From Lytechinus pictus (taxonomy: Eukaryota): a DNA stretch of 64,000 nucleotides. The DNA is taken from contig NC_087251.1 of NCBI RefSeq assembly GCF_037042905.1, positions 30,258,001 to 30,322,000 on the forward strand. Reading direction: 5' to 3'. The notes below the pieces were generated by a model. The model made no database searches and was not told the DNA's origin. It worked only from the letters and a program-made list of their open reading frames with translations. Positions 3,949 to 62,621 of this stretch are shown piece after piece. The stretch's first letter is position 1; each line of letters starts with the position of its first letter. A program made the translations under genes and the position numbers.

Positions 3949-5355
3949 GTAAGTTCTTTTTTTTTTTTAATTAGAACAGTTTGTTTTCCATGGATGAGAA
4001 GGACCTAATGGTTTCCCCACTATTGATTGCCCTCACCAATGCTGGCTTGCCCTCACCAATGCTGGCTTGCTTCCGTCATCAAGGGTTTACACTCTATGTA
4101 CATGTATGAAGAATATGTATAGTGCCTATTCATTTGTATTATATGCATTTGTGGTCTTATCATTTTCTCTTGATTGTTACTTAACTTGCCCAGATTTGAT
4201 TTCTTACTCAATGAATTGTTCTCATTTGATTTTTCAAAGTAATTCACCCTTGTTTCTATTGGCCATTTTACATTTTCAAACATAATCCAGCAGCCTTTGG
4301 TTTCATGATGCACAGGAAACAGAAATTAACAATCCCTATTGTGTTAGGCAAACAAAAGTTGATTCTTATTGGTTTGCACTTTGCAGTGCAATAATAGTAA
4401 TATTTTACAATATGTCCAAGCACAGATATATCAAATTACTCCTGGATGTATACAATGTTATTTTCTTCCCAAATACATAATTTCATCAAAGATTGCAAAC
4501 TAAATCCACTTGAACACATTTTTATTTCACATTTTCTCACCATTAAGGGAGATTTGCGAACAACTTACAAATTATACATTTTGTTTTATATTGATTATTA
4601 TAATAACTTCCAACAACCTATACGTGCGTAATATTTTGTCCTGCTTGTGAAACATGATTCCTGAAAATATGATAGATTGATCATTGATTGAAGTTTCCTG
4701 TTTCTCTCTTTTCTCTTGTCCTTTAATAATTCTAAAGTGCACGTTAAGAGTTTGTATGCGAGGCCTAACTAATGCTCTCCTATAGAACTCAAGGGCATGT
4801 AACTCATAAACCATGCATGCCATGCCAATATTGTTACAGCTTATCCTCCCCCTTCTTTCAGTTTCAAACTAATGTTGTGCCAAGTTTGATTGGAGGACAG
4901 CTGTTTATTCATGGTCTGAAATAAGCTTTATTCACCAGAAAGATGACTGTACAATTGCCACATTGTGTAGACATGACTTTTGATTCAGTGCCATTATTAT
5001 TTAATTTTTTCAAAATAGTATTCAGCAAGGGTTTGACTGAGATTATTATTATTGCTATTATGATTATATTGTTGTTATTGTTATTATTATCATTATTATT
5101 GTTTTGTTGTTGTTATTATCAGCATTATTAGTTTGTATTAAGTCATTTATATTATTTATTTCTTTCATTCTTTATTTATTTATGTATGTGTTTGCAGTTA
5201 TCATAGTTTGATAACAGATCAACTGATTTTCAAACAAAGTGTCATCCAATCTATCCTTTGTGACTCAGTTTTGTCTGCTTATAGAGATTTATTATAGAAT
5301 GTCATCATTGCATTGGAATTACACCAACACATATGATTCATTCATTCCTTTGCAG

Positions 5356-5634
5356 CACATCATAGGGAAGCTGACCAGTATTGGAGGATGGGACATAAAT
5401 CAACACACATTCCAAGACACTACTCCCTTGGGCGTAAAATCATTCACCAACATCATTGCAACAGCCAACCCAAGTGTCAAGCGGCGTCTGGTCCTTGCCT
5501 GCCATTACGACAGCAAGTACTTTAAACGTCATGAGTTCATCGGAGCTACTGACTCAGCTCTCCCCTGTGCGCAGCTGCTTTATTTGGCCCGATCCCTGGC
5601 AGAGCCCTTGAGGCGGGCTAATGCTACAAACCCT
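5356..5634 (+). CDS. QPCTL: Glutaminyl cyclase coding exon 3
   Basis: Acceptor TTGCAG, donor GTAAGT, 279 nt. Encodes [24 protein letters not shown] and [12 protein letters not shown] (Zn-ligand Asp and both disulfide Cys of M28-family QCs). Confidence 0.96.
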
Positions 5635-5674
5635 GTAAGTTAATATGCTGCTGAAGAATGTTTTAGCTAATCTG

Positions 5675-18838: not shown

Positions 18839-20569
18839 CAGATTATGCATGAAAAAAAAAACCTCACCATACGGAAGATCGTATATAAAACCTTATTTTT
18901 TTGCGCCTATCAGTATCCCATGCCGTATGCCAAATCATATCCCTCTTTTATTTTGTATTCATTACGTCGCTAGCGTACAGATGGGGGAGGGGGGGGGGTT
19001 AAAGGTGCTATGATCCCCCCCCCCCCGAAAAAAGAAGAGAAATACGAATATAAAAAAAAGTTCCGTGACCAAGGAAAAGGGAGAACGAGAAAAAAAGGGG
19101 GAAATTAAAACGGTGCCATTTTTTTTATTAATGTAAAAATCTATCACAAAATTAGGTTTTGTATTCAAAAGGTCGCTTGCTTCACTCGCTCGCAGCTTTT
19201 CATAAAATGTTGCTCCATGGGCCATGTTTGACCCCCTCAAAATTGTTGGATCATTATGCCACTGCATTACGTAAAATATAAGGGATATATTGGGAAAGAT
19301 TCAAGATTGAATTGTGTCGTTGGGCCATGGATTTGCTGCCTGATATTGGTGTTCTGTTCCTAAACCTTTAATGGCTTAATATATATTTGAAAGTGGGGGG
19401 TTGGGGGTTGGGTATCAAAACAATTTGAGGGGGGTTTGAACACCTGTAGCCCCCCCCCCCTGCTTACACCACTTGCTTATATCATAATGAATCCAATAAT
19501 TACCAGGGTTATTCAAGAGAGCCAAGCAACCTTTAATTCTAACTTGCAAAATTTGTGATTATTCCCAGGAGAATAATCATGCGTCTTTACAATTTTTCTC
19601 TCTTTTCATTAGAACTTGAGTGATTACTCTAACATGACTAATGCCTCGTGATCTATAACGTCATGTACTGTGGTTTGATGGCTCAGCTGAAAATCGTTCA
19701 TTATAAGCCAAGTCACTGGGCTGGGTTGGTGTATGGCCAGAAAGGTAAGGTGATTGGTTCGAGCAAATCGTAGGCCGAGAAAGAACAGTAGTGTACCTGG
19801 AATATCGCGTCAGGAGGGGCAACATTTATTAACAACTTTTTAAATGCGGGCCAAAGATCACCGCCATTTAAGGAAATGCGTCAAACAAATTCTGACAACC
19901 AAAAAGAAAAGATCAAAATTCTGTTGTGAGGGGGGGGGGGGTGATTTCCCCCTCTCTTTAGTGAGAAAGAGTGAAACACATAATCAATCAAATGAAATCA
20001 TAGAGGGGGATACATACATGAAAATTAAGCGAACGTAATGTCATGAAAAAAGAAAAAAGAAAGAAAATAAAAACGGGGAAAAAATGAAATGAAATGAAAT
20101 GAATGTTTAGATTTCCAAGCCCAAGCATTTTTAGTGGATTTTAAGTAGGCTTTTTTTCAATGAATGTCGATATTTGCAATGTGTTCTCGTTAATCACAAT
20201 CCACCCCCTTTTTAATCCCACCCCTCCAATCCCTTCTTACCCCCTCATTGTCAAGACACTTGGTGACCTTGTCGCGTTTAATAGGTGAGTCATGTTCAAT
20301 GACTAGCATGCATGGAGACGGGACAAAACAATTATTAATCTATGATCAATTCATCAGACTCTTACTCCTTCCGAGTACCGTCCTAAGTAATGCACTGATA
20401 CAGTCGTGTAGATTCGTTGCTATGGTTACGATATACCGCTGAGACACCAACGCATGTACTGTGAACCAAGAGTTTGATATCCGAACTTAAAGGACAAGTC
20501 CACCCCAACAAAAAGTTGATTTGAATAAAAAGAGAAAAATACTGTGAACCAAGAGTTTGATATCCGAAC

Positions 20570-21052
20570 TTAAAGGACAAGTCCACCCCAACAAAAAGTT
20601 GATTTGAATAAAAAGAGAAAAATCACACAAGCATAACACTGAAAATTTCATCAAAATCGGATGTGAAATAAGAAAGTTATGACATTTTAAAGTTTCGCTT
20701 AATTTCACAAAACAGTTATATGCACATCCTGGTCTGTATGCAAATGAGGAGACTGATGACGTCATCCACTCACTATTTCTTTTGTATTTTATAATAGGAA
20801 ATATGAAATATTCTAATTTTCTCCTCATTGTCAAGTGATACAGCGATTAATTTCTCCCTGAACATGTGGAATTAGCATTGTTTAATACTATATGGTTCAG
20901 TCAAGTTGGTCCTTATTGTCAAATCTATAAAAAATGAAATATTGTATAATTCAAACAATAAAAAACAACAGAAATAGTGAGTGATGGACATCATCGACTG
21001 ACTTACCAAGTTGTGCATATCACTGTTTTGTTGGGGTGGACTTGTCCTTTAA
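20570..21052. mobile_element. TTAA-flanked MITE (Kolobok/T2-like)
   Basis: TTAA-AGGACAAGTCCACCCCAACAAAA ... TTTTGTTGGGGTGGACTTGTCCT-TTAA. Degenerate relatives near 2906-3430, 31200-31710 and 42380-42800. Confidence 0.85.
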
Positions 21053-21443: not shown

Positions 21444-21508
<65 letters not shown>

Positions 21509-21554
21509 AAAGTTATACATGTACAACAGCTTTGGCAACTCTTTTATTTAAATA

Positions 21555-21807
21555 TTGTAAAGAAATGGATGAAGAGAACAATGGTAGGCGTCTGTCTATC
21601 TGAAGGTCAATCGGATCGGGGTCGCCCTAGCCACTAACCCGTCTCTGTGGTCTAGTGGTTAAGGCACCGGCGTTCAAAGCTGGGGGCCCGGGTTCGATTC
21701 CCGGCAGAGACATTTTTTCGGCATCACCAATTTTTCCAAAGGGTAGATAGCTCTGGGGAACCTTGATTTAAGCTACGCCTACCATTGTTCTCTTCATCCA
21801 TTTCTTT

Positions 21808-21811
<4 letters not shown>
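21555..21811. mobile_element. 257-bp MITE with perfect 37-bp TIRs, TA-flanked, carrying the tRNA-like gene
   Basis: TTGTAAAGAAATGGATGAAGAGAACAATGGTAGGCGT at 21555-21591 and its exact reverse complement at 21775-21811. TA on both sides; the right end runs into a (TA)n tract. Confidence 0.88.
21641..21712 (+). tRNA. tRNA-like gene with anticodon TCA (opal-suppressor-like, tRNA-Glu-like body) inside a MITE
   Basis: 72-nt cloverleaf. Acceptor GTCTCTG/CAGAGAC; D stem GTCT/AGGC; anticodon stem CCGGC/GCTGG with loop GT-TCA-AA; 4-nt variable loop; T stem CCGGG/CCCGG with loop TTCGATT. A box TGGTCTAGTGG, B box GGTTCGATTCC, T6 terminator at 21713-21718. Function unknown. Confidence 0.75.
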
Positions 21812-21895
<84 letters not shown>

Positions 21896-47001: not shown

Positions 47002-47308
47002 CTACTTTGGCACATACTGTCCAGTGTCTGGGTCCCTCATCGCTTGTCTCCATGGCATCACCAAGCCATTCAAAGTGACATAGATCCCATTGGATGGCAG
47101 GCACTGGAGGGCTCCAAGGGCCATGCCGATGTTAAAAGCAGCATCAGAGTCTTTGAATTTTTCCGGAAGTAATGCACCTGTTAGGACGATTCTCTTTGGT
47201 AGGTTCTGATGGCCAAGGAATGATGCCGTTGACAGGAGGGTGTCTGTTCCATGGGTGATTAGAATGAGCTTCTCACTGCAGTCATTGCATACTGTAAGAA
47301 GATTCAAC
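47002..47308 (-). CDS. Short-chain L-asparaginase-like protein, coding exon 3 (terminal)
   Basis: Acceptor TTTCAAG. Encodes ILITHGTDTL, IVLTGA, SDAAFNIG, GIYVTLNG, then TAG. Joined CDS 513 nt = 170 aa, N-terminal asparaginase domain only. Confidence 0.92.
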
Positions 47309-47756
47309 CTTGAAAGAGAGACAGTTAAAAACATGAGAGCTTCAAATGTATTCAGCTTTATAACAGTGATTTAAGTCAAAATTATTTGTGGCCCAGACAT
47401 GGAGTACAGTCTGTTTGTGCACTGCTATGTAACCTTACGGAAAAGGCGCTATATCAAATAACTATTGGATTGGATAATTTGTACATCGATAGGCTGAGAA
47501 AAGGCTTCATATGAAGAAAAGATTTGGGTCATTTGTAGAACTAGGACTGTAAACTTTTTTTAATACAAATATTTGATGCTTCTTTTATCCCATCACAACT
47601 CCAGTTAGTTTCATAACAGATGCAGATGCTTATTGGTTTTCATTTTAAATAATGACAAGATTTATGACAATTTGGTAAAAAAGAGGATCCCCATCATGAT
47701 AAATACATATACTGCATACTAAAGAAAATATATCACTCTAAAGATTTTTCAATTTA

Positions 47757-57355: not shown

Positions 57356-60300
57356 TTTTTTTGCTATAGAGCTTCAAAGTTAACCCAAATGGATTATTTA
57401 GCAATAATTAGCATTCAAAAGAATTTGGCATTTTTAGACCTCACGAGATCACAACAATGAGTTTAAAGCTATATTACTCAGTCAAAATCCATAAAAATTT
57501 CATCAAATTTTGCAATATGATTAATAATTGTATCGTTAAGATGGATAATCTATTTATACTGCTTTCAAGTGTTTGCTCATTTAAGTCTAACAGCACTCTC
57601 AATTCTTAGAAATTGCGGCAAAGATAACAAATATACTCAACCTCAAAAAATTCAAATTTCAATAACAAACTTGAGAAGTAAAAGAAATGCTGCACTTTAT
57701 TCAGAACCCATGTCATTTTCACCAAACTTTGCAAAGTTGTAGAGGAAAGTATACCTAAGAGGTGCAAACATTAAAAAATATGGGTTCATGTGCTTTTTTT
57801 TCAAACTATCAGCACTCTTATTAGAGCAAATGTGCCTCTTAAAACACCCCAAAAACGCGCCAAAAGCTTTGTATCTATGTGAGGAAAAATTTCGAACCAC
57901 TCTACCATTTTCAAACTCGGGGTCATATTAATCATACTTTGCAGCACTACAGAGAAAAGTATTTTGAAAATGTAGAGGTATAAAAAAAATGGTCCATGGA
58001 ATAATTCCAGTTTATTAGCTTCATAAAATAACACATCGGATCTGCAGTTAATGCAGATAAGGAGAAAAATCAGCTCACAATACCTACAGCTGATTAATCA
58101 CCAGTTCATCCATTGTGACGTCAGCGCGCAGAGTGTAAAATATGCGCAGATCATGATGCGCACAAACATAAGTGTGGAACGTCCTTAACCTCAATTCAAT
58201 TGGGCATACCGCCCGATATGTTGTGAGCATGGACATGTGTGAGAGAGAGAGAGAAGGGGGGGAACAGGGGTGTGGCAGTGGCATAATTAGACAGTTGGCA
58301 GCCGTCTGTTTCAAGGAGTTTTTTAACATTTAAATTTTATTTTTAAATTCTTCTCTTCTCACAGACAGCTCGCTATCGTGCAGCCACCATTGGGGGGTAA
58401 ACGATGCAAAATCCCCCTTATGGGGCTCATCGATTTTTGTCTTTATTTCATTAAAAATATATAAAAAGAACTGGACCAAAATAAAGATTATTCCGTTTTG
58501 GCCTGAAACACACCAAAACGAGGAAAAATAAACTTAAATTGGGAAAAAACAGTGACTTACTTCCGCTGTCGCGCAACTTCACTTCCCTGTTTTATCCGAA
58601 CTTAATACATAAATAAACATATGGCCATTGAGTCCCTGTACAGATCGAGCTAGAACTTCGGTCTCTGTATTTGGTGAGTGGAGCCAACGGAGTTCAGCGG
58701 AACAACCAACATAACAGAGACCTAAGCTTTTGGTCTATGGCATAATGAGCCAAACATTTTGAGGGGTCTAGAAGATCCAGTAAGCACAAATTTCGACATT
58801 TTTATTACAAAAATCAAATTTTGTAATTTTGACATTAAATAAATCTATTTCACCCCCTTTTTTTTGCTGAGATCTATATCACTTAGCTTCTGAACGCACC
58901 CCTCTCCACAAGTGAAATATTTTGATCACTTGAAAATGGTATCGTGATGTGTGTTTTCTGTTGGAAATTTAAAGTTTAAAAATTCACAAAAGCTATTTGG
59001 CCATATTTTTGTTTTGGGAAAAAAAAAGACTTTGAATATGTGTTTTGGACCCGTGTCATCATATTCAAATTCAATTTGGAAGGATGTTGCAAAGTTTTAA
59101 GCATATTGAAACTATTTTCTGATGCATAAATGCGTGCGTTTGGTAATACAAGGCCGGTTGGTAATAGAATCACTCACTATACTAAAAGAAATGACAAAAC
59201 ATGACTACTTGACCCAGTCATAAATTGTTTAACTTTTGCATATATGGGTTTATGCGCATTCATTAAATCACATTTTTTTGTGCATGCTAAAATCATCAAT
59301 TATGTTATGACATCCACCACTGATTCTTTCATACCTCTGAGAAATGATAAGATATTGAGCAAGATTTTTCTCTTAATTGCCTGGCACTTATAAATTGCAC
59401 GTCACATTAGATAACTGGAAGCTAATGCAGTTTAGCACCGGCCGACTTTGAGCACATTTCCAAGCAATAATTGTTTGTGAATGTCATAGCAAGTCCCTCA
59501 ATCACATTTCAAGGTCAATATGCCCAGGGATGCCACTTTTCAGATTTTCTTTTTCTGTCTCTTTTTCACTTCTGAATTTCCTCTCATGAATTTCAGGCTT
59601 TTTGAGGAGATGCAGTTCCATCCCTGAAAGTTGATTATTTTGGCAGCAGTTTTATCTCTCTTTAAAGGAAACCAAAGCACAGAGAGTATCAATCGTATGA
59701 GAACGAGTATTAAAATACATGTACATGTAGAGGACCAATTTAAAACAAGTATTAAAATTAGTTATGAAATAAGAGTTATGGATAAATGAAAAGTCTTGCA
59801 ACACTTTCTATAGGAATCCACAAATTAGCAACACGCCATACTTCGAAATGGCCGCCTTACTCTCAATTTGTTTTGTGCAAAAATGTTCAGTTTTTCCCTT
59901 TTATTCTACAGGTTTCTGATCATCTCAGTGTGAATTTTATTTTTATTTGCTTAAAAGCAAACTTCCATCATTTGTTGTTTTAGAGATAATCATACACACA
60001 ATGACAGGTGTGTAAAATTGTGCCGTGTAACGTCAGTTACCGTGGAAATGCCCATATTGAAACTATTTTCTGATGCATAAATGCGTGCGTTTGGTAATAC
60101 AAGGCCGGTTGGTAATAGAATCACTCACTATACTAAAAGAAATGACAAAATTCATGACTACTGTACTTGACCCAGTCATAAATTTCATAACTTTTGCATA
60201 TGGGTTCAAAATATATTAAAATGTATTAAAATACATGTACATGTAGAGGACCAATTTAAAACAAGTGTTAAAATTGGTTATGAAATAAGAGTTATGGATA

Positions 60301-60786
60301 AATGAAAAGTCTTGCAACACTTTTTATAGGAATCCACAAATTAGCAACATGCCATACTTCGAAATGGCAGACTAACTCTCAATTTGTTTTGTACAAAAAT
60401 TTTCAGTTTTTCCCCTTTATTCTACATGTTTCTGATCATCTCAGTGTGAATTTTATTTTTATTTGCATGTTGTGCTCAGAGGGAGGCAATGTGCAATTAG
60501 AAAGATAATGAGAAAATCTGAAAGTGAAGAGTTAAAACAAAATAAAGAAATAGAAAATCAGCCATTTTGAAGCATGTTTGTCAATTTGAAGTTCCCTGTA
60601 GAAAATACAACCAACTTACAAAATCTTAGAAAATTTCAAACTTCCATAGCTTTCTTATTTCATATCCAATTTGGATTCAGCTGCTTTTAAAATGTATATT
60701 GACCCTCTCATTTTAACTTCTCTCCCTGGGATTTAGCTTCCTTTAATTTCTCCTTTGAGCCCTTACATGTACATGTATCACATCAG

Positions 60787-60941
60787 GACCCCGTTGCATA
60801 AAAGTTACCATTTTGTTCACTTTGCTACGCAATGGTAACTTTCATGAAATCCTTGATTTTGATTGGCTGTTGATCAGCGTTATCATGGTAGTTACCATTG
60901 GATGGCAAAGTTACCATTAGTAACTATATTGCAACGGGCCC
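60787..60941. mobile_element. PIF/Harbinger-like MITE (duplicated at 62291-62445)
   Basis: GACCCCGTTGCA...TGCAACGGGCCC, CAG TSD. Confidence 0.7.
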
Positions 60942-61022
60942 CAGGTTGGCTATTCCATTCGCCCTCAAATATTCCCATAATATGTTATCAGCTTTTTCTT
61001 TTTATGTCATTTTCTTTCCCAG

Positions 61023-61059
61023 AATATGCATTTAAAGCAATCAACCAAGGGGGTATTAC
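61023..61059 (+). pseudogene. Truncated duplicate of PSMA6 exon 2 (pseudo-exon)
   Basis: Same acceptor and first 37 nt ([13 protein letters not shown]) as the real exon 2, then switches abruptly to intronic sequence at a duplication junction. No matching donor. Confidence 0.85.
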
Positions 61060-62526
61060 TTTTCAGATTTTCTTTTTCTGTCTCTTTTTCACTTCTGAAT
61101 TTCCTCTCATGAATTTCAGGCTTTTTGGAGGAGATGCAGTTCCATCCATGAAAGTTGATTATTTTGCCAGCAGTTTTATCTCTCTTTAAAGGAAACCAAA
61201 GCACAAAGAGAGTATCAATCGTATGAGAACGAGTATTAAAATACATGTACATGTAGAGGACCAATTTAAAACAAGTATTAAAATCGGTTATGAAATGAAA
61301 AGTCTTGCAACACTTTCTATAGGAATCCACATATTAGCAACATGCCATACTTCGAAATGGCAGACTAACTCTCAATTTGTTTTGTACAAAATTTTTCAGT
61401 TTTTCCCCTTTATTCTACACGTTTCTGATCATCTCAGTGTGAATTTTATTTTTATTTGCTTAAAAGCAAACTTCCATCATTTGTTGTTTTAGAGATAATC
61501 ATACACACAATGAAAGGTGTGTAAAATTGTGCCGTGTAACGTCAGTTACAGTGGAAATACCCATATTGAAACTATTTACTGATGCATAAATGCGTGCGTT
61601 CGGTAATACAAGGCCGGTTGGTAATAGAATCACTCACTATACTAAAAGAAATGACAAAATTCATGACTACTTGACCCAGTCATTAATTTTATAACTTTTG
61701 CATATGGGTTTAAAATATATTAAAATGTATTAAAATACATGTACATGTAGAGGACCAATTTATAACAAGTGTTAAAATTGGTTATGAAATAAGAGTTATG
61801 GATAAATGAAAAGTCTTGCAACACTTTTTATAGGAATCCACAAATTAGCAACATGCCATACTTCAAAATGGCAGACTAACTCTCAATTTGTTTTGTACAA
61901 AATTTTTCAGTTTTTCCCCTTTATTCTACATGTTTCTGATCATCTCAGTGTGAATTTTATTTTTATTTGCATGTTGTGCTCAGAGGGAGGCAATGTGCAA
62001 TTAGAAATATAATTGGAAAATCTGAAAGTGAAGAGTTAAAACAAAATAAAGAAATAGAAAATCAGCCATTTTGAAGCATGTTTGTCAATTTGAAGTTCCC
62101 TGTAGAAAATACAACCAACTTACAAAATCTTAGAAAATTTCAAACTTCCATAGCTTTCTTATTTCATATCCAATTTGGATTCAGCTGCTTTTAAAATGTA
62201 TATTGACCCTCTCATTTTAACTTCTCTCCCTGGGATTTAGCTTCCTTTAAGTTCTCCTTTGAGCCCTTACATGTACATGTATCACATCAGGACCCCGTTG
62301 CATAAAAGTTACCATTTTGTTCACTTTGCTACGCAATGGTAACTTTCATGAAATCCTTGATTTTGATTGGCTGTTGATCAGCATTATCATGGTAGTTACC
62401 ATTGGATGGCAAAGTTACCATTAGTAACTATATTGCAACGGGCCCCAGGTTGGCTATTCCATTCGCCCTCAAATATTCCCATAATATGTTATCAGCTTTT
62501 TCTTTTTATGTCATTTTCTTTCCCAG

Positions 62527-62621
62527 AATATGCATTTAAAGCAATCAACCAAGGGGGTATTACATCAGTTGCAGTGAAGGGTCCAGACTGTGTTGTGGCC
62601 ATCACACAGAAGAAAGTTCCT
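62527..62621 (+). CDS. PSMA6: Proteasome subunit alpha type-6, coding exon 2 (gene presumably continues beyond the window)
   Basis: Acceptor TCCCAG, donor GTAAGT, 95 nt. Encodes [32 protein letters not shown]. Confidence 0.93.

Follow-up and report, generated by a model that had tools for sequence, protein, structure and literature searches.

Is a transposon spreading a UGA-reading tRNA gene through the Lytechinus pictus genome? The question arises from a single locus in the window analysed here (the whole 64,000-nt stretch of contig NC_087251.1), where a sequence-only reading had described a MITE carrying an intact Pol III tRNA gene with a UCA anticodon. The sole tRNA call that ARAGORN makes in the window is a 72-nt cloverleaf at 21641–21712 with tca at position 34, and RF00005 of Rfam matches it with 60.9 bits (E 9.2e-12), every pair being standard. 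The tRNA-like features were thus described correctly: the stems are paired, a T6 run directly follows the tRNA, and the anticodon loop GTTCAAA provides G32, U33 and A37, of which G32 is atypical in tRNA anticodon loops. ARAGORN labels the gene tRNA-SeC because of its UCA anticodon, which is also what it has in common with natural opal suppressors. tRNA-Sec, however, has a long variable arm and extended acceptor and D stems, whereas the cloverleaf has a 4-nt variable loop, 7/5-bp acceptor/T stems and a 4-bp D stem and sits in a repeat, in agreement with the earlier view that it is not tRNA-Sec. The perfect inverted repeat of 37 bp (21555–21591/21775–21811; 39–40 bp counting the adjoining TA) is likewise present next to (TA)n. 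The features of the locus are collected in Table 1.

Table 1. Features of the tRNA-bearing locus (window coordinates; unit positions refer to the 406-bp repeat; E1 and E2, first and second 3' end sites)
Feature	Position	Strand	Basis or remark
Left target microsatellite	21444..21503	.	(TA)n at 21444-21497, then short (TG)n joined to tail end of inverted arm
Optional tail, unit positions 1-50, ending at E2	21504..21552	-	blastn of unit against window
Inverted short arm, unit 368-406; the left 'TIR' of the earlier reading	21553..21591	-	Junction unique in the genome
5'-truncated forward arm, unit 184-406, ending at E1	21591..21813	+	99% identity to array unit of locus L002
tRNA-like cloverleaf: 7/4/5/5-bp stems, 4-nt variable loop, discriminator A, A and B boxes	21641..21712	+	ARAGORN, Rfam
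TCA anticodon (positions 34-36)	21674..21676	+	Some older copies have C or T at base 36
T6 run, resembling a Pol III terminator	21713..21718	+	Sequence
3' end of forward arm, the right 'TIR'; normal E1 end of the unit	21775..21811	+	Inverted-repeat search, unit alignment
Right target microsatellite, (TA)40	21812..21891	.	Sequence

The locus is an inverted 3' fragment placed head-to-head with a 5'-truncated copy of a 406-bp unit, and the apparent TIR is the overlap of these two arms. Read along the unit, the window runs from 50 to 1 and from 406 to 368 in inverted orientation, then forward from 184 to 406. The left arm does not end at the 'TIR' but extends to 21504 as an inverted copy of the unit 3' end plus a 50-nt tail, and the 'TA' on the left is internal unit sequence. 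The 28-nt arm junction has a single match in the 812-Mb genome, with up to one mismatch allowed. A MITE with 37-bp TIRs and a TA target duplication would account for the perfect inverted repeat and TA flank at the window locus alone; it conflicts with the unique junction, with the 50 nt of unit sequence beyond the 'TIR', and with other copies, whose inverted arms vary widely in length or are missing and which also occur as head-to-tail multimers. For this assembly we regard the MITE interpretation as refuted.

When the genome was searched with the 261-bp element, 18 further longer matches appeared, each beginning at query position 38 or later, and their flanks disclosed the 406-bp unit, which is arranged head to tail in locus L002 and holds the cloverleaf at positions 234–305. 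Exact UCA matches to a 34-mer that spans D arm and anticodon number 1,788 genome-wide (control, 0), and those to a tail motif 2,183 (control, 2). Unit copies are both dispersed and organized in long tandem arrays. At C28:995,407–1,026,257, 76 consecutive units were found; 12 further sampled 10-kb stretches at 710–960 kb of the same contig contain the unit, 7 of them being fully covered, and a second array is located at C2:8.866–8.884 Mb. The unit was also detected on contigs under two other organism labels, which do not necessarily denote other species. X17 and X19 display no anticodon difference at a level of 4% or more, and one flank position differs throughout.

Insertion ends were mapped in 150 dispersed insertions from three locus sets chosen by exact motifs (tRNA, tail and mixed), leaving aside arrays, loci suspected to be duplicates, and any cluster lying no more than 30 nt from a locus edge. 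The outer 3' ends (n = 215) are concentrated at two sites, with 88 at unit 390–406 (E1), 94 at unit 48–62 (E2) and 33 elsewhere; E1 and E2 together take 182/215, though the two windows combined span 8% of the unit. One locus set was picked on the tail, inflating the E2 count, and in the tRNA-selected set alone 65/72 ends lie at E1 or E2. Four or more TA repeats occur within 30 nt at 146 of these 182 ends, and target-site duplications are unreadable within such (TA)n targets. E1 and E2 are about 55 nt apart, and the unit tail measures 52–56 nt. The 5' ends (n = 225) are spread over the unit, being overrepresented towards its 3' end, where many arms are very short. Head-to-head inverted arms were observed in 68/150 insertions, and insertion sizes range from about 35 nt to multimers, which extend from dimers up to arrays. 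The copies share neither family-wide TIRs nor a fixed length, they form tandem multimers, and they have two alternative 3' ends together with 5' ends that scatter; these features contradict the proposed DNA transposon and indicate Penelope-like retrotransposition.

Penelope-like elements (PLEs) are marked by 5' truncation, partial tandems and an inverted 5' copy, through which inverted repeats come to flank the unit; a tail is optional, the targets are (TA)n, and non-autonomous families have insertions with several copies arranged head to tail (PMC8557442, in part). Non-autonomous PLEs (MRC1 and other non-autonomous Chlamys elements, as well as Naiad and Neptune insertions) resemble the unit in 5' truncation, head-to-tail multicopies, inverted 5' copy, optional tail and (TA)n targets, and Naiad and Chlamys are described in the excerpted text as having no canonical hammerhead, like the unit; in contrast to the non-autonomous Chlamys, Naiad and Neptune forms described there, the unit contains an intact internal tRNA cloverleaf and has a tail of 52–56 rather than 30–40 nt (PMC8557442, in part). 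In vitro, a PLE protein cuts and extends both strands of AT-rich DNA, and its reverse transcription starts at two internal AC-rich sites that are the tail limits; ribozyme cleavage was dispensable for insertion of the PLE studied in that system (excerpts of PMC11167929). The unit thus represents real, young and very abundant insertions of Penelope type that bear a tRNA and no hammerhead, adding such a form to the non-autonomous PLEs. Copying of the 406-bp unit into (TA)n by a PLE reverse transcriptase and GIY-YIG endonuclease is likely.

From PLE biology, the following sequence of events can be proposed. PLE protein would bind a multimeric or circular plus-strand RNA, the AT-rich target would be nicked on both strands, and reverse transcription would start internally at E1 or E2, so that a separate arm can be added at each end of the target. 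The two arms would then meet at a truncated junction, where their overlap would look like a TIR, and some insertions may later have grown into arrays of tens to hundreds of units.

A candidate driver was sought with a GIY-YIG profile, which gave at least 16 matches among the 150 of 468 candidates scored, 10 of them belonging to one young family. One copy contains a 954-aa frame with RVT_1 and GIY-YIG domains, and near-identical copies are present. A CX4CxxC motif precedes the nuclease in this frame, which points to the Neptune or Nematis type (excerpted text of PMC8557442). The resident Neptune-type PLE, intact and autonomous, is itself found head-to-head in (TA)n, with inverted arms and two 3' ends 56 nt apart. 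A pair of its copies at L132/L133 (C19:10,761–10,769 kb) is 99.8% alike over 3.4 kb and shows a 565-bp tandem in the 3' region and a hammerhead core near the 3' end; in the PLE pLTRs the hammerhead motif is complete by descriptor in subfamily B, and subfamily A has the core only. Sequence similarity to the unit is slight. Alignment of the unit tail to subfamily B gave a weak similarity (P about 0.01–0.05 in four comparisons), alignment to subfamily A was not significant (P 0.2–0.4), and a profile of 79 unit ends matched neither subfamily. BLAST of the unit against the 16 GIY-YIG loci and 11 wider stretches returned only chance matches of 12–22 nt or nearby unit insertions. A PLE as driver class is therefore well supported, and no autonomous partner with clear shared sequence was identified among the families compared.

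The same end structures bear on another scenario, in which DNA repair places fragments of a satellite DNA at fragile (TA)n breaks, through templated insertion or circular DNA from the arrays and without an RNA step. Large homogeneous arrays exist as donors, TA or CA microhomology is present at E1/E2 junctions, many 5' ends also join (TA)n, and the PLE subfamilies compared show no clear partner homology. These observations are outweighed by the strong polarity of the insertions (182/215 3' ends at two sites, with scattered 5' ends), by a real PLE in the same genome that shares the two ends, the 56-nt tail and the inverted arms, and by the arrays themselves, including that of 76 units, which stop at E1 in (TA)n. 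Repair-mediated pasting is improbable on this balance, and PLE-type mobilization remains the preferred explanation.

tRNA-derived SINEs have a tRNA-related region with A and B boxes and reach thousands of dispersed copies, both of which they have in common with the unit. The tRNA of the unit, however, is internal, fully paired and terminated rather than a 5' head, and unit copies reach upstream of the tRNA, span several units and have PLE-type ends. Animal non-LTR retrozymes offer a second comparison: like them, the unit is a non-coding tandem within the 150–450-bp size range, occurs from monomers to long multimers and has a proposed PLE dependence (PMC7229834 and preprint 10.64898/2026.07.22.740005, both in part), but it contains a tRNA fold in place of the CUGANGA hammerhead core, which is absent from either strand of young or old copies. 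Rfam detected no ribozyme in the unit or older copies, and a scan of four unit regions found no CTGANGA core on either strand, whereas the same scan recovered the motif in PLE subfamily B and the core only in subfamily A. A hammerhead-like stretch on the strand opposite the T run of old copies was considered and rejected, as no core was found. Since a retrozyme requires a type I hammerhead in each unit (excerpts of the same two sources), the unit works like a retrozyme but is not a member. In the schistosome SINE-like repeats Sm-alpha and Sj-alpha, a Pol III module is combined with a hammerhead; they are tandem repeats whose Pol III-type module needs an upstream unit for transcription, as in the present unit, but their hammerhead is active, whereas the 406-bp unit has none and its T6 comes right after a complete cloverleaf (PMC6765202, in part). 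A search of literature titles and abstract openings, with Repbase, Dfam, GtRNAdb and most subscription papers outside its scope, disclosed no tRNA-bearing, hammerhead-less PLE derivative.

The parentage of the cloverleaf was examined against retrieved host tRNAs (Glu-TTC, Gly-TCC, Asn and Lys, with Asp, His, Gln, Trp, Gly-GCC and Glu-CTC left out); the RF00005 genome search scored 63 of 73,101 candidates and returned Lys genes. Ungapped identity is tied, at 48/72 to Glu-TTC and 49/72 to Gly-TCC. The reported likeness of the D and T arms to tRNA-Glu is borne out by 13/16 and 17/17 identical positions to host tRNA-Glu(TTC), but the T arm is equally identical to tRNA-Gly(TCC); the D arm favours Glu, while the anticodon loop and discriminator favour Gly. 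Both sides have changed in 7 pairs relative to Glu and in 8 relative to Gly, and 21/21 pairs are nevertheless kept. Because pairing is retained in rewritten stems although a promoter needs only the A and B boxes, this pattern suggests that the cloverleaf fold matters in the RNA of source copies. The earlier argument for selection on tRNA structure is upheld to this extent, conditional on a parent among the retrieved isotypes: with only four kinds of host tRNA compared, the 'compensatory' changes could instead reflect an unsampled parent.

Dispersed copies decay regardless of fold, as expected for dead copies. Their tRNA diverges by 0.052 substitutions per site against 0.077 and 0.060 in the flanks, so that it is not clearly better kept, and 43 stem changes break pairs while 24 keep them (19.9 expected to keep). 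Variants within arrays also break pairs. For the anticodon, 37 independent loci not chosen on the tRNA were sampled, with one arm per locus and with arrays and three suspected duplicates dropped. Base 36 differs in 8/37 loci (5 T and 3 C), the highest count in the cloverleaf, and TCA is found in 15/15 arms diverged by less than 3% versus 4/9 arms at 10% or more. Genome-wide, 13 matches have a base 36 other than A (10 of them TCC). A recent change to UCA from a Gly TCC ancestor was also considered; it is weakened by the occurrence of TCA in copies diverged by 10–14%, mixed with TCC and TCT, in a poorly resolved tree that gives no ancestral base 36. Taken together, the tRNA fold looks kept and decoding does not.

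These data bear directly on the possibility that the unit acts as a multicopy Pol III gene encoding a functional opal suppressor. Such a gene would fit the perfect cloverleaf with A/B boxes and T6, and UCA predominates, both in the 1,788 exact matches against the 13 with another base 36 and in 219/221 sampled array copies; this uniformity of young copies, however, follows from recent expansion, and base 36 varies among older ones. The atypical G32 also counts against it, as does the expectation that wholesale UGA read-through should be harmful. The 40-nt 5' flank of the cloverleaf is 58% GC, unlike host tRNA genes (means of 28–34% for 77 genes). Among synthetase identity sets, only the tryptophan determinants are partially matched: A73 (the major tryptophan determinant in human), G1–C72, C35 and A36 are present, but U34 departs from C34, and determinants are missed for Gly (at U2–A71 and A36), Glu (at C35) and Ser (no long arm, no G73) (PMC9976931, in part). 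Tryptophan is the best guess if the tRNA is charged at all. The spread of a UGA suppressor, as first proposed, is thus weakly supported at best, with TCC and TCT among older copies, and we consider a working suppressor gene very improbable; use of the tRNA module in cis by a mobile element, which had been named as the alternative, is more likely.

Unit RNA was detected in three raw RNA-seq runs under the same organism label, of 12.9 million reads each, with 1,768, 1,202 and 903 unit reads covering the whole unit in both directions. These 150-nt reads reveal no site where many molecules begin or end, and libraries of this kind cannot show mature tRNA. Run X21 is dominated by a single variant, as would be expected if an embedded copy is read through; even for the dominant expressed variant the two strands are equally represented (163/344 and 161/340), so that the library looks unstranded. 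Joints in which a read 'goes back' were observed in the RNA, and they are also expected from tandem genomic copies. The genomic 5' ends were inspected for traces of template processing. RNase P cleavage or a Pol III start at tRNA +1 was rejected as the source of the template 5' end, as 7/225 ends lie at the tRNA start against 6.1 expected, without a pile-up. The tRNA 3' end and T run, one of three windows tested, show a slight excess, with 11/225 ends (P 0.044 before correction). A seeming accumulation of ends at unit 240 resulted in part from clipping at a private variant and disappeared with another natural unit. The same 5'-end pattern would result from a circular template or an uncut multimeric one. 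Pol III should terminate at the T6 and T5 runs, short of the 3' ends, which leaves the source of a long template unexplained.

The role of the cloverleaf is the least certain part of this account. It likely acts as a folded RNA signal for the element, not as a tRNA that decodes UGA. Among specific roles, we tentatively place first a host tRNA-processing or stabilizing signal of RNase P/Z type in place of the hammerhead. An internal Pol III promoter, by analogy with the schistosome SINE-like repeats, is possible but more doubtful. That the cloverleaf is a passenger from an unsampled parent appears unlikely, and a role in decoding more unlikely still. A bolder joint reading would make the units ribozyme-free Penelope parasites, in which the tRNA fold replaces the hammerhead, RNase P/Z cut multimers for ligation and copying, and some 1,800 UCA genes release a UGA-reading tRNA as a by-product, most plausibly charged with tryptophan, that causes stop-codon read-through in the animal; as one claim, this whole is a long shot. 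Were mature UCA tRNA made, it would constitute a transposon-borne source of UGA read-through in an animal.

As a young, high-copy system, the unit is suited to studying the choice of foreign RNAs by PLE proteins and the reason for processing signals in PLE RNAs. Annotation is affected as well: tRNA finders will report well over 1,000 spurious tRNA-Sec or suppressor genes here, and an individual unit copy can be mistaken for a MITE.

Several further repeats were encountered. At L174:2590–5535 (C7 near 39.33 Mb), a second tandem unit of 334 bp (8.2 copies, 99% alike) has an inverted head together with a separate tRNA-like module, which shows a paired acceptor stem and a T run; a hammerhead core is absent, BLAST finds no similarity to the 406-bp unit, and, if of the same design, this second unit would make the layout with a tRNA in place of a hammerhead recurrent. 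A host tRNA-Lys array at L216:2884 and overlapping loci (C4 near 9.71 Mb) includes copies with a TTA (ochre) anticodon, represented by 8 ARAGORN calls over overlapping loci and hence by fewer distinct genes. On C28, the unit array is split by a 38-kb insertion at 957,415–995,406 (L150, L031), of which the interior was partly read; inverted repeats at least 2.2 kb long (92% alike), within which a 33-bp tandem repeat lies, form its two ends, and a 4-bp target duplication is apparent. At L046:4385–9182 (C28 near 734–739 kb), a 4.8-kb insertion lies within the T arm of one array tRNA; it has terminal inverted repeats of ~225 bp and a 9-bp target duplication, and we take it to be Mutator-like by these features. 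Other homogeneous arrays on C28 (L037, L039, L056, L057, L060 and L062) have periods of 851/1256, 1158, about 1000 and 1172 bp, and Rfam gave no match in the two of them scanned.

Elsewhere in the window, an exact 84-bp direct duplication lies within another interspersed repeat (20457–20623), and exons encode Peptidase_M28 and Asparaginase domains at 5227–5640 (+) and 47005–47370 (−). A 1.5-kb tandem duplication, 96.5% alike, occupies 59535–62563 and includes a short frame without a Pfam match, which we presume to resemble the N-terminus of a proteasome alpha subunit.
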